Positions 1-9,826 of a stretch of 29,208 nt of DNA are shown one piece after another. The stretch is from Candidatus Helarchaeota archaeon. Its GTDB lineage: Archaea > Asgardarchaeota > Lokiarchaeia > Helarchaeales > RDOG01. The notes beneath the pieces are model-generated. The model searched no databases. It saw only the letters and a program-made list of their open reading frames with translations, and had not been told where the DNA came from. The stretch covers positions 1-29,208 of the forward strand of contig JALGVI010000045.1 in NCBI GenBank assembly GCA_029838215.1. Reading direction: 5' to 3'. Within the stretch, counting starts at the first letter, position 1, and each line of letters begins with the position of its first letter. Both the position numbers and the translations under genes were made by a program.

Positions 1-2645
1 TTCTTCAGGAATGAAATCCTTGGCGGCATCTCGAGCTGAATCATCGAACTTTTGAATGCGTCGTTTTCGTTTTAATTCATCGGGTATGTGGTCTTTCGCC
101 ACGTTTCTGGCAGAATCGCTGAGTTTTGGTTTTGATCGCGGTCGCTTTGTCTGGTAAGGGAGGAAATCCTTTGCTTCATCTCGGGCTGTATCTTGGAGCA
201 AAATTTTACGTTTTGGTAACTTTTTTCCAGCTACTTCCTCGAGGATTTCTTCGTGTTCTTTGTCGACTTTCGCAAAAGTAGGTCCTGTTGATTCTATTTT
301 TTTTCGTTTTTTCTTTTCACGGGCGTGAATGGGTTTTGTGTCAAATTTTTTGAAGGTGGGTTCATAAGATTCGGATTTTTTTCTTCTTTTTACAGGAGGT
401 GCTTTTTCCTGTAAGAGATCAGGATCAGATTCTTTTTTCTCGGCTTGCATTTCCTGTTCGATTCTTCGAAATGTTCCTCCTTCATCTTCTAGCTTCTGTC
501 TTTTCCTAACGGGTTTTTTTGTAGGAAGAAGAACAGAATCATCTTTTTCCCATTCCTCTTTCATTTGAGCATCAATTCGTTTGAAAGTACCTTCTTCATC
601 CATGTATTTCAATGATTTTTGTTCTAATTCATCAAAGTAAGACCTTAATTTCTTTTTCTTATCTGCCGTGATGATATATTCATCTTTATCGTAAATTTCT
701 TTCATCTCTTTCTCTATGCGTGCAAATGTTCCCTCATCATCTCTCAAGATTTCACGATATCGTTTAATTTCAACTCGGGCAGCTGCTTCGTATTTTTCAC
801 CCAGTAAATCATCCATCAACTCGGCAGTAGTGCGATATTTTTTGGCACGGGCAAGCAAGTTTTCTTCTTTTCGTTCCCATTCTGGTTTTTCCTGCGAAGG
901 GATGAAATCCTGAGCAACATCACGAGCCGAAAAATCTTTTAATTCGGTCAAATCACGTCTTTTTGACTTTTTTCCAGCTACTTCATTGTAAACTTCCTTG
1001 TATTTCTCGTCCATTAGTTCGGCAGTTGTTCTATATTGACTTGCAGCTGCCAAATCTTTAGATTTCGAAGTATCGGGAAGAAGTTCGGCTTCTTTGGAAT
1101 CAGGAACGACCAAGTCGGGAGCCGCATCTCTTGGAGAAAAATCTTTTAATTCGTCCTGAATGGAACGTCGCCGTTGGACTTTAGAACCGGCAATACGTTC
1201 ATATTCATCTTTTAATTCAGCATCTAAGAGCTCTGCCGTGGTCAGATATTTTCCCTTCGTGGATCTTCTAGGTTTTGTACCCATCTGTTTTATTTCCTGA
1301 GAGCTGACACCTTTCTCTATCTTAGGAGACCAATCTCGTGCCACATCTCGTGGAGAAAATTCCAAGAGTTCATCTTGCTCTTCTCCTTTCCGTCTTTGAG
1401 TTGGAGTTACTTGGTTTTCAATAATCCCCTGAGCATCAAGCCATTCCGCAGTAGAACGATATTCGACACCGGAAGTTTTACCACGAGTAGGACGCACGGG
1501 TTGTGCTTCATCAAGCAGGTAATCTTGGGCAGCATCTCTAGGAGAGAACTCCTTCACTTCATCTTGAATGACCCTTTTTCGTGTCGTGCTCCCAACAACC
1601 GTTTCGGGAGCACTTCCCTGTTCGGCATCAAGCCATTCAGCGGTTGAAGTAAATCTTCGGGAATGTAATCTTGTACTATGTCTCTAGGAGAGAACTCCTT
1701 CACTTCATCTTGAATGACCCTTTTTCGTGTCGTGCTCCCAACAACCGTTTCGGGAGCACTTCCCTGTTCGGCATCAAGCCATTCAGCGGTTGAAGCGGTT
1801 GAACGATATTCGGCGTCTGGAATTTTACGTCTGGTTTGAGTGGCAGGATGTAAATCTTCGGGAATGTAATCTTGTACTGCATCTCTAGGAGAGAATTCTT
1901 TAACATCTACTTGACTCATGCCTGCTCTGCGGGGCTTCAATAATTCTTGTTCTTCGACATTGCCTTGTTGTGCTTCTAGCCATGCAGCAGTTGATTCATA
2001 CCCGTCTATGTCAGATTGTGATTTCGGGACTTGAAATTGTCGTGCCACTTGTGATTCGGGGGATCCCGTTTCTGTTTCTGTATCGAGTGCTTTCCAAGTT
2101 GGAATATATTCTTCATTTTCAGCAATCGGACTCTGAGTTGAAGGTTGAGTTTCTGTTTCAGGTGGAATTCTCTGTTTTAAAATTTCTGCAGAATTGGGCT
2201 CAACGGCGGCAGGTTCTTTCTTTGGACCCTTTACTAGAGCATTTAATTGATCGAGCATGCTATCCACGGATGATCCTCCTGAATAGGCTTCTTCTTCCCG
2301 TGTCATATCTTGTTCTTGATAATCATAACTCTGCTCTAAATTAGAATGCTCTGCGGTAGGATATTCCTGATAATGTCCTTGATATTGTTCCGCTTGGTTC
2401 TGATCGTATTCCATTGGAGTTTGTTCTTGATAATATACGGCTTGAGCTTCCTGGCTCACATCATGACCGTGATCTGAAGTGATTTCTGTAGCAGTCTGCG
2501 GTGCTATTTCTCCTTGTGGATAACAATATGCACAATAAGAACCGTATGCGTAGTAACAGGAGGTGCACAGTGGCGTCCCGCAGTTTTGACATTGAATGAC
2601 TTGTTCAGCTTCAAAATTCCTACCACATCTTCCACATTGGGGCAA
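1..2645 (-). CDS. Large low-complexity repeat protein with N-terminal 8-Cys (FYVE-like spacing) zinc finger; frameshifted near 1650; 3' end outside the window
   Basis: Track ORF 1554..2645 starts MPQCGRC-x11-CQNC-x4-CTSC-x7-CAYC. Manual translation of the frame with codons starting at 1650 is stop-free down to base 1 (550 codons, ...TSTAEWLDAEQG...DDSARDAAKDFIPEE) and carries the same motifs. This frame has no Met until about 1284, so the two frames look like one gene. Confidence 0.8.
1535..1795. repeat. Exact 115-bp direct repeat (1535..1649 = 1681..1795, period 146 bp); also 1649..1677 = 1850..1878
   Basis: Base-by-base comparison: both copies run tctctaggagagaactcc...cattcagcggttgaag. 146 is not a multiple of 3, which explains the frameshift. 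Confidence 0.95.
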
Positions 2646-3034
2646 TTCTAAAACAACCTTATATTATTTTTGGGATTCGTAATTTTTTTCACTAAAAATT
2701 CAATTTTTTGCAAGGAATACGTGATCTGAGAAGACTTTTTGGAATTTTTTCTATCGAAAATTGATCACAACTAATTTACTTAAAGCCCGACACAAGTATT
2801 TTAATCATTCGAGATCTTCTAAGTCAAAATTATGACTAGAAATTAATAAATTGGAATTTATAGATCTGTTATTAGAGATATTTCAAAGAACTTCATAATT
2901 CATGCAAAATTCTTTAAAGATTTTTAGAAAAAATATTGGATCATGATAATTTCCGCGTGACTTTCCTTGCAATATTGCGGAATAGCATGGATTTCGGTAA
3001 AAATTTCAAAAAAGAATAAAAAAAGGAGAAAAAT

Positions 3035-3703
3035 TTGGAGAAAATCGATATAGAAAAAATCATAGGCGGAGTTCTGGCAAGGCGTGTCATCCTTGAGACA
3101 TTGTTAGAGGGTCCTAAGACAGGAACAGAGTTAAGATGGGCTTTGGCAGATCGATTTGATCGACGAATCGATGGTGTATCAGATGCCTTGCTATATTTCA
3201 ATTTACAACACCTTGAAAACACGGGTCTTATATTGCGAAAAAAGGAATGGAAGTCGAAGTACGCCAGCATCATTGCCAGTAAAATCCAATTTATTCGTAA
3301 CTTTTTTCATGTTTCGGCTCCAGTTACAGTGGTGAGTGGTATAGATGATGATCCAAACCTTATACGTACTTTAAGGATGAATTTCAGACGCCAAAAAGCC
3401 ATTTCACCTGAAAAATTTTATTTTATCGCATCTGATAAGTTAAAGCGAAGGGCCGCAGGATTATTTGAAGGTGTTAAGATTTTTTACGTCGAAGATGAGG
3501 TTTTCAAGAACGATTTCAGAAACATGTCTTCCTTCATACGAGAAATAATAGACGGTGAAATCGCATCAAATGAAATCATTGTAAATGTTGCATCAGGATC
3601 TCGGATTTGTTCTTTAACGCTTTTAAGATTTGCAATGCAATATACACTTCGTTGTTTCTACTTAGACAAAAATGAAGAAATTTATTGGTTTCTAGACGAG
3701 TAA
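3035..3703 (+). CDS. Winged-HTH (PadR/ArsR-like) + C-terminal CARF-like domain protein; putative ligand-responsive transcription regulator
   Basis: TTG start with AGGAG at 3024-3028. N-terminus RRVILETLLEGPKTGTELR...LYFNLQHLENTGLI fits a wHTH. C-terminus VTVVSGIDDDP ... IIVNVASGSRICSLTLLRFA...CFYLD fits the CARF pattern (strand-(T/S)GG(R/K)-helix-FY). Confidence 0.7.
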   Translation: MEKIDIEKIIGGVLARRVILETLLEGPKTGTELRWALADRFDRRIDGVSDALLYFNLQHLENTGLILRKKEWKSKYASIIASKIQFIRNFFHVSAPVTVVSGIDDDPNLIRTLRMNFRRQKAISPEKFYFIASDKLKRRAAGLFEGVKIFYVEDEVFKNDFRNMSSFIREIIDGEIASNEIIVNVASGSRICSLTLLRFAMQYTLRCFYLDKNEEIYWFLDE

Positions 3704-3730
3704 ATAAAAAGTAAAGAAAAAATAGCAAAG

Positions 3731-4237
3731 TTATTGTTTCAGAAGAAGATCAGACAGAAGTTTAAAGGATTCTTCTACATTTTCTCCGGAACTCGCAGAT
3801 GTTTCGAAAAATGGAACGTTTATTTTCTTGCTATACGCTTCACCCTCTTCCTTGGTAACTTTTCTTTGATCTGCAAGGTCGACTTTGTTTCCCATTAAGA
3901 TACTAGGAATATCCCCACAATAATTGCGAAGGTTTTCTACCCATTCATCCAACTCATCATATGTTTCCTTTCGAGTAATGTCATAAACTATTAAACAACC
4001 ATTTGCTTCTTGGTAATAATCTCGGCGAATCCATTTAAATCTAGAATCACCAGCTAAATCCCAAATCTGGAGAAGAACACGTTTATCAGGATAATCAAGA
4101 TACTTTATTGTAAAATCTGCTCCAATCGTTTTTAAATACGATTCGGAAAATTTTCCGGTTGTAAATCGTCGAATCAAGCTCGTCTTGCCAACTGCTGGTT
4201 CGCCAATTGTTACAATTTTAAATCCATAGGTCTTCAT
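3731..4237 (-). CDS. Rab-like small GTPase (Ras superfamily)
   Basis: G1 GEPAVGKT, G2 YLKTIG, G3 WDLAG, G4 NKVD, G5 ETSA. RabF1-5-like motifs IGADF, LLQIW, RFKWIR, YYQEA, LIVYDIT. AGGAG upstream. Confidence 0.95.
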   Translation of the reverse strand: MKTYGFKIVTIGEPAVGKTSLIRRFTTGKFSESYLKTIGADFTIKYLDYPDKRVLLQIWDLAGDSRFKWIRRDYYQEANGCLIVYDITRKETYDELDEWVENLRNYCGDIPSILMGNKVDLADQRKVTKEEGEAYSKKINVPFFETSASSGENVEESFKLLSDLLLKQ

Positions 4238-4336: not shown

Positions 4337-4933
4337 TTATATGTTTTTAACTTTTGAATCTGGAATTTCATCAAGTTCAATTAAAAACTTCATAAACCGA
4401 TTTTTAATTTCCAACGAAACCAGTGAAATGATAAGGGGGGGGAGAAGGTCTTCTTCGGTAATTTGAATGTAAAGAATTGAAACTCCATTATTCTTTTCCA
4501 TCTTTTTAAGAGCTCCGTGAAGATTCTCAGCTTTTTGAATTTTATAGATTTTCTCAAATCCCATTGACTTGAGTACCTTTAAAAACTCGAATTTTTGAGA
4601 TGAAACAAAAAATTGATTTGAAGATTTAGATGGGATTTGAAAATCAAATAGGACAAGGATGAGGTTTGAAATGTCGTAGTTTTGAAGAGCATGAATCGTT
4701 CCAAGGTTATTTAGAAAATCCCGTGTTTCTTGAAGAACAAATATGCGATTTTTTAAGTTAAGTGCCAATCCTAGGGAAAGCGTAATGCAATTCCCGAAGT
4801 CTGCAGTCATGTAAAAATTGCCTGGGCGATCATATCGAAAAAGAGATTGAGACAGAAATCCCGGTGGTGAAACAATGACATCAAATTGTTTCAAGGAGTC
4901 CTTGAAAAATTTGAGTACTTCATTAATATTCAA
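4337..4933 (-). CDS. Degenerate TPP-binding (PP) domain protein, ComE / phosphonopyruvate decarboxylase beta-like
   Basis: NFYMTADFGNCITLSLGLALN..RIFVLQETRDFLNNLGTI...NLILVLFD matches the ComE/Ppd-beta pattern (NFYM.G.MG....GLG.AL...V....GDG...MN.G.......N.....DN), but GDG and DN are replaced. Confidence 0.65.
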   Translation of the reverse strand: MNINEVLKFFKDSLKQFDVIVSPPGFLSQSLFRYDRPGNFYMTADFGNCITLSLGLALNLKNRIFVLQETRDFLNNLGTIHALQNYDISNLILVLFDFQIPSKSSNQFFVSSQKFEFLKVLKSMGFEKIYKIQKAENLHGALKKMEKNNGVSILYIQITEEDLLPPLIISLVSLEIKNRFMKFLIELDEIPDSKVKNI

Positions 4934-5429
4934 TGAACTCCCTCCAAATTGAGTTGTTTAGATGAATGATTGTCGGTGTTTGAAGTCTCATGCCTAATTC
5001 ATTAACATCCTTCATGAATGGAATGTTTTTCATTTTACGTATTGAAAAAAATGGAATGTTTATTGCGCGGAAAATTCTCTTAAGTCTCTTGACGTGTTGA
5101 CGTTCAATATTTTCGTTAAAAATATTGCTTATCAGAATGATTAATAGCGAGAATTCATAACCGTTCTGAAAAATTCTTACGGATCTCAGAATTTCATCTG
5201 CTTTCAAGCTATCAATGAAAAGAACTGGAGAGGTTCTACATATCATTTGAGCAGCCGCCATTCCAAAAAGATCGGGGATTGTAAATCCAAGATATGACTT
5301 GAATTGGAATAATTTATTCTTTTCATCTAAATAAAGCTTGAATAGAGATGATAAATCAGAATGCATTATGAGCCATCTCTTATTTAGTTTAACCAATTCT
5401 TTAAAGATGGGCTGAAAGTTTCTCTCCAT
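4923..5429 (-). CDS. Degenerate PYR-domain protein, ComD / phosphonopyruvate decarboxylase alpha-like
   Basis: DLFGMAAAQMICRTSPVLFIDS...FSLLIILISN...FRAINIPF...TPTIIHL follows the ComD layout. It overlaps the ComE-like gene by 11 bp in the usual alpha-then-beta order. Confidence 0.5.
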   Translation of the reverse strand: MERNFQPIFKELVKLNKRWLIMHSDLSSLFKLYLDEKNKLFQFKSYLGFTIPDLFGMAAAQMICRTSPVLFIDSLKADEILRSVRIFQNGYEFSLLIILISNIFNENIERQHVKRLKRIFRAINIPFFSIRKMKNIPFMKDVNELGMRLQTPTIIHLNNSIWREFIEY

Positions 5430-6853: not shown

Positions 6854-7494
6854 GATTCATCCACCAATCCAGAGAGATCCAGGGATCCCTTTCGCAAGAT
6901 CCTTATCTCACTCGTGGATACATCAACGATTGTTGACGGTTTGCCATGCTTGCAGGAACCCATATCAATGATTAAATCAACCCTTGAAAGAACATCCGGC
7001 GATATATCGCTGATTTGAACGGGATCTGGTTCTGAAGAAAGATTTGCACTAGTTCCAATGAGATATCCGTTGGCGGCTTCCATCAATTTTAGGCAAAAAT
7101 CATGTTTGGGTATGCGAATTGCAACGGTATTTTGATATCCTGTCAAAATGTCGGGAACGATCTCTTTCTTCTGCAAAATTAATGTCATTTGTCCGGGCCA
7201 ATATTTTTTACCAAGTTCTACAGCAATTTCATTTAAGTAGCAGATCTCAGAAACTTTTTCAATCGAATGACTTAATACAGGAAGACCCTTCTCAAATGAT
7301 CGCCTTTTAATTGAGAAAACCTTCTTGATTACATTTATATCAAGAGGATTCCCCCCCAAGCCATATAAAGTGTCTGTAGGATAAATTATGGTCTTGCCCT
7401 TCAAAACATAATTGTCAGCGATTGCATTTATTTGTTCCTTGCTGACGGGTTTTTGCAGAAATTGCAAGTTTTTAATATTCTTATCGATTATCAT
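6850..7494 (-). CDS. sua5: L-threonylcarbamoyladenylate synthase (Sua5/YrdC/TsaC), short single-domain form
   Basis: YPTDTLYGLG, KRR, WPGQMTLIL, VAIRIP, TSANLS, STIVD motifs. Confidence 0.95.
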   Translation of the reverse strand: MIIDKNIKNLQFLQKPVSKEQINAIADNYVLKGKTIIYPTDTLYGLGGNPLDINVIKKVFSIKRRSFEKGLPVLSHSIEKVSEICYLNEIAVELGKKYWPGQMTLILQKKEIVPDILTGYQNTVAIRIPKHDFCLKLMEAANGYLIGTSANLSSEPDPVQISDISPDVLSRVDLIIDMGSCKHGKPSTIVDVSTSEIRILRKGSLDLSGLVDES

Positions 7495-7582
7495 TTTGAT
7501 TTTCCATGTTTATTATGAGTATTTTAAATAAAAATTTCTTAACTTCAGAAATTGTTTTTAATCGAAGTTTTAGATTGATAGA

Positions 7583-8101
7583 ATGATGATTAGATTTTTA
7601 ATTTCATGTCCCCGACTGCACGAAAAAGATGCTTGTATTGAAGCCAGGTACATGTTTTCTTCCATTGATATTTCACTTTCCTGTAAAAGAACTCGGATTC
7701 CGGGTTTGGTATTGGGAAGTTTAAAAGAAGAGCTTGATTTACCAGAAGTCATCGAAAAATTGAAAGATCTGCTTCAGGAAGAAGCATATGGTTTTCATTT
7801 CGTGTTGAAACTAACGCCTCTTGAACTTTTTGTCCCCAGCACGCTTGAAGAAATCTTGAATGCAACTTCTCAGCTTAAAGACAAAATAAAAAAAGGAGAG
7901 AAATTTAAAATTGAACTTCAAAAAAGGTTCACGACACTTCGTTCTGCAGACATCATTCAAGAAGTAGCATCACTAATTGAGCATGACGTTGATCTCAGCA
8001 ATCCTGATAAAATTCTATTGATTCAAATTGTAGGGGAACATACAGGGCTTTCAGTTCTAAAGCCAAACGACATTATTTCAGTTGTAAAGCTGAAAAGATG
8101 A
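7583..8101 (+). CDS. THUMP-domain protein (Tan1-like RNA-binding)
   Basis: C-terminal FKIELQKR...VDLSNPDKILLIQIVG...GLSVL is a typical THUMP core. Confidence 0.88.
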   Translation: MMIRFLISCPRLHEKDACIEARYMFSSIDISLSCKRTRIPGLVLGSLKEELDLPEVIEKLKDLLQEEAYGFHFVLKLTPLELFVPSTLEEILNATSQLKDKIKKGEKFKIELQKRFTTLRSADIIQEVASLIEHDVDLSNPDKILLIQIVGEHTGLSVLKPNDIISVVKLKR

Positions 8102-8104
8102 ATG

Positions 8105-8689
8105 CTATTTATCCAAAATTAGCATTGCCATTCGATTCAAAACTATTTTTAGTAGGGCATTTTGCCATTCTTGCGTTTCCCCACTTGGACAGATCGCAAG
8201 CAATTCTTTTTCATCTATTTTAAAATCAGCCATGATTTGTTTCTTTTTCGGTTCCGTTAATTCCAGCAGTGTTTCATCTTCTTCTGCTTTTAAAAAGAAT
8301 TGGATGTCCTTGATTTGTAGGGATATCATGCCATGATCATTCCCGATTACGACCAAACCCAGTTCCGTGAAATCTTCTTTAACTCCAAGTCTTGATTTTG
8401 CTACTTTTATTTGTCGTTGTCCTGACGCATGAAGAAGAAATTCCATTCCCAAATCCATTGAAATCATTTTTCCAAGCTCGTGAGAGCTTATTGCGTGAAG
8501 TGCAGCAAAAAAAACATGTTCCCAAGAAGCAATGCGTGAACAATTAAAACATTGAATGATGGATTTATTCTTCACGCCATCAAAAAAATCGAAAAGCTCG
8601 GGAATCGAAGGAAGAGTAATTGATTTGAACGCTGTTATACCGCAATATTGAAAAGGAAGCCTTGTATCTTCAAATTTCTTTAAATACAT
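8105..8689 (-). CDS. cgi121: KEOPS complex subunit Cgi121
   Basis: IQCFN...HVFFAALHAI...DLGMEFLLHASGQRQIKVA...GVK matches the Cgi121 signature (E....SG.RQI..A...G). Confidence 0.92.
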   Translation of the reverse strand: MYLKKFEDTRLPFQYCGITAFKSITLPSIPELFDFFDGVKNKSIIQCFNCSRIASWEHVFFAALHAISSHELGKMISMDLGMEFLLHASGQRQIKVAKSRLGVKEDFTELGLVVIGNDHGMISLQIKDIQFFLKAEEDETLLELTEPKKKQIMADFKIDEKELLAICPSGETQEWQNALLKIVLNRMAMLILDK

Positions 8690-8776
8690 GTTCTCAAGTC
8701 ACTCACAAGGAAGAATTTTTATCAGTTGTCTTTACAAGTACGTGTAAAAGAATATAAAATTTGGTGAATTTCTGAC

Positions 8777-9826
8777 GTGATCATTCATCATGGAGATGCT
8801 GACGGAATTGCTGCGGCAGGCTTGCTTTTATTGGCTCAAGATGTCGATGGTTTGAAATCGAAAGATGAAGAATTGGCAGAACTGAAATATGCGACAGTTG
8901 GATATATTAATAGGTTTCTTAAAAAAATATTGAATAAACCCCCAGAGCCGCTCTACATTTTAGATATCAATGCAGATGATAGCGAACGATTTGTATATCA
9001 ATTGAAAAAACTCGCTCATAAAGGATTTGAAATTTCATTAATAGATCATCACCCATTTGCGTATGATCAGGACTTATTAAGTTATAACATTAAGGTAATT
9101 CGAGATACTGAAATGTCGGCTGCAGAGCTGGTATATAAAACGTATATTTCTGCCATTCCTTCAAAAGATCGTGAAAAAGCAAGTTTTTTATTACTTTTAG
9201 GAGCTCTTGGTGATAAGAAAATAACGCCTTTTGTAGATAAAATCATGAAAGAAATGCGACAGGAAACCATTTTCGACGTGCATGCAGTGCTCATGGCAGG
9301 CAAGTTTGATTCTTCATTTTTACGAAGCCTTTTCTATGACAGAGATAAGAATGGCATAGGTTTTACAAAAAAAATATATGAAAAAGCCGTGGATAAGCGC
9401 TTCTTTCTGGAAAAAGTGAAAAAGTTCGTAATCAAGCATCATGTTTGGATCAAGTCGTTGAATGCCCGTATTGTGAATATTTATTCACCATATATCGGAC
9501 TTGCAGCAGGTTATTTAATCGACCAAGAGTGTGATTTTGCAATTGCAATAGGTGATGGGAAACCACCGTTAAGAATTATCGTCAAGGATTACTTGAAAAG
9601 GATTTTTAGCTTGGGTCTGAGCAAGGACTTCCGAATTTGGGAAAGACAGAAAAATGTCAGGATAAGCTTTCGCACGAAAAAACCAGTCAACGACCTCGTG
9701 AAAGAAATAGCAAAACAGTTCGATGGAACTGGAGGAGGTCATAAATACGCATGTGGGGCAAATATTCCAAAAGAAACTCTAGATGCATTTATTCGAAAAA
9801 TCTTAAAGGATTTCGCGAAGTTATAG
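8777..9826 (+). CDS. DHH/DHHA1 family phosphoesterase
   Basis: GTG start; HGDADG, ILDI, LIDHH, ALGD and C-terminal SFR...GGGHKYACG motifs. Confidence 0.9.
   Translation: MIIHHGDADGIAAAGLLLLAQDVDGLKSKDEELAELKYATVGYINRFLKKILNKPPEPLYILDINADDSERFVYQLKKLAHKGFEISLIDHHPFAYDQDLLSYNIKVIRDTEMSAAELVYKTYISAIPSKDREKASFLLLLGALGDKKITPFVDKIMKEMRQETIFDVHAVLMAGKFDSSFLRSLFYDRDKNGIGFTKKIYEKAVDKRFFLEKVKKFVIKHHVWIKSLNARIVNIYSPYIGLAAGYLIDQECDFAIAIGDGKPPLRIIVKDYLKRIFSLGLSKDFRIWERQKNVRISFRTKKPVNDLVKEIAKQFDGTGGGHKYACGANIPKETLDAFIRKILKDFAKL

Follow-up and report, generated by a model that had tools for sequence, protein, structure and literature searches.

Which gene does a regulator with a CARF domain control, and what could it sense, in a genome in which no Cas10 is found? 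This question is raised by a gene at positions 3035 to 3703 (forward strand) of a 29,208-nucleotide (nt) stretch of DNA from Candidatus Helarchaeota archaeon (GenBank assembly GCA_029838215.1, contig JALGVI010000045.1, positions 1 to 29,208), referred to here as the window. The gene encodes a protein of 222 amino acids (aa) with an N-terminal winged helix-turn-helix (wHTH) and a C-terminal CARF domain, and is present as a single copy in its genome. Its start codon is the TTG at 3035, with AGGAG at 3024 to 3028, six bases upstream. An identical 222-aa protein is on record (P0001), and because 33 homologs (219 to 275 aa, 35 to 80% identity) could be aligned with it over the whole length, the open reading frame (ORF) was taken to be a real gene.

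The explanation that best covers the evidence as a whole, and which we consider about evenly balanced between right and wrong, is that the protein acts as a dimer to control transcription of the actin gene, perhaps under modulation by a ligand, and is not an antiviral device. A review (PMC12993045) describes lokiactin as the most conserved and most highly expressed Asgard cytoskeletal gene, with a regulation that is not known. A conserved, single-copy, predicted DNA-binding protein encoded beside actin across many Asgard families thus offers a concrete hypothesis, and one that is cheap to test with a 25-kDa protein.

Architecture and family membership

Using PADLOC, the window protein was found to match the CARF_m5 model (PDLC01987) with an E value of 3.8e-51 and 171.9 bits, with residues 5 to 218 aligned to profile positions 5 to 194 of 195. 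Weaker matches were obtained with CARF4 (Card1-type, 1.1e-8) and Csx1 (1.5e-7) and then with the CARF3, CasR, and Csa3 models. The protein is almost certainly a wHTH-CARF protein of family CARF_m5. A preliminary description of this DNA had called it an orphan, a claim that does not stand, as the CARF_m5 profile already spans both the wHTH and the CARF domain. The name CARF_m5 is reportedly that of a minor CARF family in the 2020 CARF/SAVED census of Makarova et al. In the literature searched, neither this name nor any paper that connects Asgard actin with a CARF or wHTH regulator was found, the 2020 CARF census, a possible source, lying outside the search.

Since whole-protein searches of the PDB were uninformative (phmmer returned chance-level matches only, and the full-length profile matched 8z4i at an E value of 0.63), profiles were built for each domain separately. 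The N-terminal profile (95 residues) matched PadR-type 1xma (3.4e-4) and Pex 2dql (3.2e-3), with further ArsR and PadR entries between 0.014 and 0.5. Pfam PadR (PF03551) matched residues 19 to 71 (E = 0.0082; 16.6 bits against a cut-off of 27) and was recovered in 10 of 33 family members at an E value of ≤0.1. Together, these matches place a PadR/ArsR-like wHTH at approximately residues 19 to 71 (positions 3089 to 3247, forward strand), for which the likeness to PadR would hold at the superfamily level only. The most conserved stretch of the family in the 33-homolog alignment, F41 to E61 (DRRIDGVSDALLYFNLxHLE), lies in the recognition-helix region of this wHTH, which fits a conserved DNA target. 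Overall, the protein is likely to be a DNA-binding regulator.

The C-terminal profile (130 residues) matched the CARF nuclease 8z4i (1.6e-4), Card1 (0.31), and Can2 (0.36). On the window protein, Pfam returned CARF_Card1 (2.5e-4, residues 123 to 216) and HFX_2341_N (3.4e-4), both under their curated cut-offs, and Csa3_N at an E value of 0.14 (12.6 bits against a cut-off of 27); across the 33 members, these models matched 20, 21, and 5 proteins, respectively. In a stored ESM Atlas model of a 48%-identical homolog (P0015; predicted template modeling score, 0.81), residues 94 to 235 had CARF clusters (HFX_2341_N, Card1 CARF, and Csm6-type) as structural neighbors, with template modeling scores of 0.59 to 0.62 against stand-alone CARF clusters. 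By Pfam, PDB profile, and this stored model, the CARF domain was placed at approximately residues 94 to 219 (positions 3314 to 3691, forward strand). The order given in the preliminary description, a wHTH followed by a CARF domain and thus the reverse of Csa3, was borne out by Pfam and the domain-wise PDB profiles, and comparison of the C-terminal residues with CARF families returned CARF throughout (PADLOC CARF_m5, PDB 8z4i, and the neighbors of the P0015 model).

Two loops of the CARF domain were compared with those of Csa3. The β4-α4 loop VNVASGSR (residues 183 to 190; positions 3581 to 3604, forward strand) corresponds to Csa3 motif 2 (L-x2-G-h-R) and aligns with NVTGGTK of 8z4i. In the aligned homologs, G188 is invariant, S189 is present in at least 90%, and R or K occupies position 190 in 33 of 33, in agreement with the earlier statement that an SG-x-R motif is retained here. 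According to the Csa3a study (PMC8699464), the Gly and Arg of Csa3 motif 2 clamp the phosphates of cyclic tetra-adenylate (cA4). The β1-α1 loop reads PVTVVSGIDDDPNLIR in the window protein and P-x4-GG-L/F-D in the family consensus, a form shared with Cas10-linked paralogs that is similar, and not identical, to Csa3 motif 1 (T-h-G-F-N/D-E-x4-R). In the proposed mechanism, the PadR-like winged helix would bind DNA, and the CARF domain would dimerize, with a ligand pocket forming at the two-fold axis as it does in Csa3.

Pairing with the actin gene

The wHTH-CARF family was found to be small and restricted to Asgard archaea. Clustering at 90% identity gave 34 clusters, and a search of 1.84 billion proteins gave 20 representatives at 50% identity. 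When 400 genomes of the phylum were searched with the family profile, a match at an E value of ≤0.001 was obtained in 143 and a full-length match at ≤1e-30 in 43; the latter belong to families f1 to f3, f8 to f11, f19 to f21, f26, and f27, and more distant forms of 256 to 295 aa occur in family f31. Lineage names beyond "Helarchaeota," such as Lokiarchaeia for particular loci or families, are ones which we take to apply and do not derive from these searches.

The surroundings of the gene were mapped at 27 loci, comprising the window, all 6 loci returned by one search for relatives, and 20 hand-picked regions that cover every family with strong matches and include six of f31. The regulator gene directly adjoined the actin (lokiactin) gene in 19 of the 27 loci, in 17 of them head-to-head and in 2 in tandem. 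In the tandem pairs (L004 and L005, family f2), the regulator gene is inverted and still adjacent. ORFs of 73 to 82 aa called in the spacer of four of the 19 pairs were treated as non-genes. In the nearest relative of the window (L001), one gene lies between actin and the regulator, and at two further loci (L006 and L047) the contig ends on the relevant side, with the actin of the L006 genome found 262 nt from the end of another contig. Actin is the tightest of all neighbors, as ComB, for comparison, directly adjoins the regulator gene in 8 of the 27 loci, and the far flank of the pair varies (ComB, Rab, CDC48, and others). The paired actin is the conserved Asgard actin (Pfam Actin, 1.5e-133), is 68 to 97% identical between lineages, and was the sole match at an E value of ≤1e-60 in each of five genomes checked. 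The preliminary description, correct in finding no CRISPR or cyclic oligonucleotide-based antiphage signaling system (CBASS) in the window, had missed this pairing, which is the main context of the gene but is not visible in the window because the two genes are apart in this genome.

A Gibbs sampler and an expectation-maximization search agreed on a palindrome, ATATCAyC-N6-GrTGATAT, in the actin-side part of the spacer. Its perfect form, ATATCACC-N6-GGTGATAT, measures roughly 22 bp with half-sites 14 bp apart, and it lies 8 to 48 nt upstream of the actin TATA box. A position weight matrix (PWM) built from 13 spacers, none of them from the order of the window, was then applied to the last 300 nt of held-out actin promoters, each compared with 1,000 dinucleotide shuffles. 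Four of nine held-out promoters reached a p value of ≤0.05 (C49, 0.032; L001, 0.031; L005, 0.010; L063, 0.004), the others being L064 (0.079), L060 (0.09), L061 (0.28), L062 (0.295), and L004 (0.35). L063 and L064 are from family f20, in which the regulator gene is unlinked from actin. Upstream of the regulator gene itself, no palindrome signal was found in the four unlinked loci examined, with p values of 0.25 in the window (best PWM score, 3.7), 0.074 in L001, 0.28 in L002, and 0.99 in L003. The actin promoters of 10 genomes without a full-length ortholog gave p values of 0.174, 0.782, 0.494, 0.844, 0.727, 0.239, 0.244, 0.081, 0.174, and 0.033, so that 1 of the 10 was at or below 0.05. The palindrome is suggestive of a shared control element, without proving one.

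Archaeal activators are usually placed upstream of the BRE (the B recognition element) and the TATA box, and the palindrome is thus in an activator-like position. A dimer of the regulator would bind this site and set actin transcription, and where the two genes adjoin, the spacer would serve as a common control region. That actin is the target is, on the strength of gene order and promoter sequence, as probable as it is improbable.

In the genome of the window, the actin gene is on another contig (C49, 28761 to 29894, reverse strand), encodes a protein 92.9% identical to the L001 actin, and has 8 kb of contig on one side and 28 kb on the other. Because actin is well inside C49 and the other L001 neighbors map to the window in order, the actin-regulator pair is split in this genome, unless the bin is misassembled (contamination, 6.2%). 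This split amounts to a natural experiment, in which a remnant of the palindrome has stayed with the actin promoter on C49 (p = 0.032) and none is seen upstream of the regulator gene. The regulator would here act in trans on the C49 actin gene, and it now faces a zinc-ribbon repeat-protein gene. The link to actin therefore comes from the relatives of the window and from the remnant site on C49, not from the window itself.

Several observations weigh against this reading. The palindrome is weak (12.3 bits), and the actin TATA boxes were assigned by eye. Comparing promoters with and without the regulator, a one-sided Mann-Whitney test gave a p value of 0.027 over all rows and of 0.37 with one row per family. 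The regulator is kept without actin nearby in 5 of the 27 loci (L002, L003, L044, L045, and the window), and as its upstream region in the window lacks the palindrome (p = 0.25), nothing in the window alone ties it to actin. Most Lokiarchaeia (families f5 and f6), the class of the window's own genome, have no full-length ortholog (profile matches there were mostly absent or C-terminal only), yet keep actin. The cultured Lokiarchaeia appear to be among those without it. Genes for CDP-alcohol transferase, NTP transferase, Sua5, THUMP, and CGI-121 form a block that is found repeatedly at a distance of a few genes and is syntenic across Asgard archaea, so part of the actin adjacency could be inherited order. 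Finally, 4 of 15 actin-clade sequences, namely that of L051 and all three of f31, do not have the basic residue of the β4 loop, and ligand sensing therefore cannot be universal.

Several of these points also speak for the strongest alternative, in which adjacency to actin is nothing but inherited gene order and the protein is a general or autoregulatory factor with other targets, such as the repeat-protein gene, with which it shares its spacer in the window, or the 3' block of lipid and threonylcarbamoyladenosine (t6A) genes. This 3' block, taken with ComB, is widely syntenic too, the gene persists unlinked from actin at the five loci named above, and the motif statistics are modest, losing significance with one row per family. 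Set against it, actin (19 of 27) directly adjoins the gene more often than any other neighbor does (ComB, 8 of 27), this adjacency survives inversion of the gene in f2 (L004 and L005), and the palindrome stays with unlinked actin promoters (C49, 0.032; L063, 0.004) and is absent upstream of unlinked regulators (0.25, 0.074, 0.28, and 0.99). We consider inherited order unlikely, though it deserves to be taken seriously, and continue with actin as the candidate target.

Some promoter candidates were set aside. Extending the upstream regions of L061 and L062 to 400 nt gave p values of 0.010 and 0.37, but this was post hoc and not counted. TCATC-N15-GATGA, common to the C49 and L001 actin promoters, had 25 genome matches and was dropped as not specific. 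Among 15 actin-upstream regions, ATAGAT occurred in 9 (shuffle mean, 4.0) and TATAGAT in 6 (shuffle mean, 1.4); since no correction was made for about 2,000 k-mers, this enrichment was not used as proof. Separately, three actin-upstream regions of Lokiarchaeia without the regulator (L069, L072, and L073) carry AAGATAAT plus one further base, C or A, about 50 nt before the actin start codon. This short element bears no relation to the palindrome; it may serve as a separate control element or be part of the leader.

Cas10, signal synthases, and the CARF pocket

The genome of the window, which is 94.3% complete, carries a complete-looking type I-B cas cluster (C80:1-10600; L058) with Cas1, Cas2, Cas4, Cas3, Cas5b, Cas7b, and Cas8b, and no match in it was obtained to the models for Csm1, Cmr2, PADLOC Cas10, SMODS (CD-NTase), DAC, GGDEF, or class III cyclase. 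No CRISPR-like array was detected in the window. The reported absence of a cas gene, array, or CD-NTase from the window was thus confirmed, and the genome check for Cas10 or CD-NTase that the preliminary description had proposed found neither genome-wide. Among the 400 genomes of the phylum, Csm1 was above its cut-off in 18, including 1 (G006) of the 43 that bear a full-length ortholog; any Csm1 match at an E value of ≤0.001 was seen in 18 of the 43, many of them to the HD domain only. The PADLOC Cas10 model matched 64 of the 400 genomes, 11 of the 43 with an ortholog, and none of the 7 genomes of the window's own order, leaving 32 of the 43 without a Cas10 match. At none of the 27 loci were cas genes found beside the full-length ortholog. 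The absence of Cas10 and of cas neighbors supports the view, already put forward in the preliminary description, of a housekeeping rather than a defense regulator.

Relatives adjacent to Cas10 do exist. Three Lokiarchaeia proteins of 214 to 217 aa (L065, 8145 to 8789; L066, 10544 to 11197; L067, 12069 to 12713) align with the entire CARF_m5 profile (6e-44 to 4e-41) and are encoded beside Cas10 genes matched by PADLOC at 9e-67 to 2e-28, and in L065 the CARF_m5 gene is head-to-head with the Cas10 gene. These proteins match the wHTH-CARF family profile only from about position 60 onward. In a tree of 28 family members, they formed one long-branch clade (support, 100/100); as 10 of 25 inner branches were open and long branches met, the tree settled neither the monophyly of the actin-linked proteins nor the direction of exaptation. 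A weak CARF_m5 paralog of 271 aa (E = 1.9e-9) was also noted in L068 (G125:C193, 718 to 1533, reverse strand). About 6 kb from it is a 768-aa ORF (7186 to 9492, forward strand), the N terminus of which matches the Csm1 HD region (1.2e-7), with no PADLOC match at 1e-6.

These relatives are the best argument for a Csa3-like defense regulator, which would retune host genes during infection on sensing cyclic oligoadenylate whose source, a type III CRISPR system or some other antiviral cyclase, is encoded elsewhere. The β1 and β4 loop motifs are common to the Cas10-linked and actin-linked proteins, and 11 of the 43 ortholog-bearing genomes have a Cas10 match. However, none of the synthases sought was found in the window's own genome, Cas10 is missing from its order and from most ortholog-bearing genomes, the full-length orthologs have no cas neighbors, and the Cas10-linked proteins are a separate clade with a different wHTH (a 4-residue deletion). 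We regard a role in defense as very improbable.

Equally hard to credit is a protein that is no transcription factor at all. Its CARF domain would then work either as a ring nuclease or as an enzyme that binds nucleotides, or the whole protein would partner structurally with actin or the cytoskeleton, its winged helix being used for protein contacts. Winged helices are able to make such contacts, the neighbors here (the repeat protein and a Rab-like GTPase) have a cytoskeletal or trafficking flavor, and some CARF domains are ring nucleases (PMC8730458). Against this, the best-conserved segment aligns with the part of PadR-type regulators that holds the DNA-recognition helix, the shared spacer contains a palindrome whose symmetry matches, and no fused longer or effector form occurred among 1,811 candidates, which is weak evidence.

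For a transcription factor of actin, the CARF pocket may modulate the regulator by way of a small nucleotide other than a Cas10-made cyclic oligoadenylate. Ligand control is a tentative proposal and somewhat doubtful. Unlikely as a whole, if attractive, is the wider proposal that a CARF sensor joined to a winged helix became established, early in the evolution of Asgard archaea, as a dedicated transcriptional switch for actin answering an endogenous, non-Cas10 nucleotide. If true, a second messenger would govern the expression of an archaeal cytoskeleton by way of a module also used in antiviral signaling, and the regulator would clearly exemplify a CARF sensor with a task other than defense.

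Surroundings of the gene and comparison with known systems

The regulator gene is divergent from the zinc-ribbon repeat-protein gene (1 to 2645, reverse strand), which runs off the contig, and convergent with a Ras/Rab-like small GTPase gene (3731 to 4237, reverse strand; Pfam Ras, 2.5e-54), a layout given in the preliminary description and upheld by the ORF map. The repeat-protein gene consists of two ORFs (1554 to 2645 and 1 to 1557) in different frames with a 4-nt overlap, GTGA. A single 937-aa ORF in L001 matches both and is placed there between the actin and regulator genes; the split in the window may stem from a frameshift or a sequencing error, or the two ORFs may be coupled genes. The GTPase is a neighbor of the regulator only in the window, L001, and L051 on the neighborhood map. 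Beyond it are two overlapping ORFs of 198 and 168 aa (4337 to 5429, reverse strand) with a weak TPP_enzyme_C match (E = 0.005) and no homolog in the other 26 loci; they occupy the position held in many lineages by ComB (2-phosphosulfolactate phosphatase), the gene for which adjoins the regulator gene in many other lineages. The base composition of the window is low in G+C (about 35 to 45%).

The AT-rich spacer shared by the regulator and repeat-protein genes spans 389 nt (2646 to 3034; PWM score, 3.7; p = 0.25 with 1,000 shuffles). The preliminary description had proposed as an operator the near-palindrome AAAATTCTTTAAAGATTTTT at 2906 to 2925. The sequence is present, with 9 of 10 arm pairs, but it differs in the aligned stretch of L001, and because one as good was found in 168 of 2,000 dinucleotide shuffles of the spacer, it is not beyond chance. 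It overlaps a block conserved with L001 in pairwise alignment (2923 to 2941, forward strand), which consists of TTTAGAAAAAATAT, an exact 14-nt match (2923 to 2936), and, after one base, GGAT. As the L001 copy ends about 10 nt before the ATG, this block is most simply read as a TATA or core promoter element, and it is probably that of the regulator gene, with a leader of roughly 70 nt. A sigma-70 and terminator scan of 2600 to 3800 was indistinguishable from shuffles and is not relevant to archaeal promoters.

Further observations concern other loci and the split pair. On C49 (22000 to 37810; L059), the upstream neighbor of actin is a same-strand gene for a family B DNA polymerase, the other flank is a 416-aa ORF, and about 1.5 kb downstream there is a TFB gene. 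The record for L004 (DATKTP010000170.1), which holds the wHTH-CARF gene together with a gene for an Asgard actin (Pfam Actin, 1.5e-133), is titled Candidatus Deferrimicrobium sp.; as this names a bacterium, the contig is probably misbinned or mislabeled. The f2 tandem is preceded by genes for a Roadblock/LC7 protein (360 to 401 aa) and an AAA_22 ATPase (380 to 387 aa), at 4688 to 7385 in L005 and 5017 to 7600 in L006, another cluster of eukaryotic-signature flavor. In L052, L053, and L056 (f31) and in L051, the β4 loops read STGPS, SFAPP, SRGPP, and HGSE, respectively, L053 also being without the glycine; these proteins have insertions of 20 to 30 residues, yet their genes are still head-to-head with actin.

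Among known systems, the closest is CARF_m5 itself (PADLOC-DB 2.0, "CARF_m5--CARF"), which has the same order of wHTH and CARF and matches at full length. Its profile comes from a defense database, whereas the window protein and its orthologs are encoded by single-copy core genes beside actin or housekeeping genes, mostly without Cas10. The Cas10-adjacent CARF_m5 proteins of Lokiarchaeia share with the actin-linked proteins the length class, the profile, and the P-x4-GG-L and T-G-x-T/S-K/R loops, and that of L065 is encoded head-to-head with its presumed target operon, like the actin-linked regulator genes. They differ in being 21 to 24% identical to the window protein, in the 4-residue deletion, which falls in the recognition helix, and in lying beside type III cas genes rather than actin.

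With PadR regulators (1xma and Pex 2dql), a wHTH alignable with the N-terminal 95 residues is shared; PadR proteins carry a C-terminal helical dimerization part, in place of which the window protein has a CARF domain. HFX_2341-like proteins of Methanobacteriota and Thermoplasmatota (PF19810 with WHD_DUF6293 or an ArsR-type HTH) likewise combine a non-CRISPR, CARF-like Rossmann fold with a winged helix and, when language-model features are compared, come out as the closest named clusters (score, 0.77), which is a lead only. Their CARF-like domain is N-terminal, unlike that of the window protein, and PF19810 matches in the family were all below the cut-off (best E value, 2.3e-5; window protein, 21.5 bits against a cut-off of 30).

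Csa3 and Csa3a of Sulfolobales differ in their opposite domain order, in a MarR-like helix where the window protein is PadR-like, and in a CRISPR linkage that the window protein does not have; Csa3 TIGR01884 gave 19.3 bits against a cut-off of 60.2. In common are a CARF sensor and a winged helix within a small dimeric regulator and an equivalent of the G-x-R loop. In the Csa3a study, the palindromic site CAPPa lies 12 bp upstream of the BRE/TATA (PMC8699464), a position that the palindrome upstream of the actin TATA box resembles.

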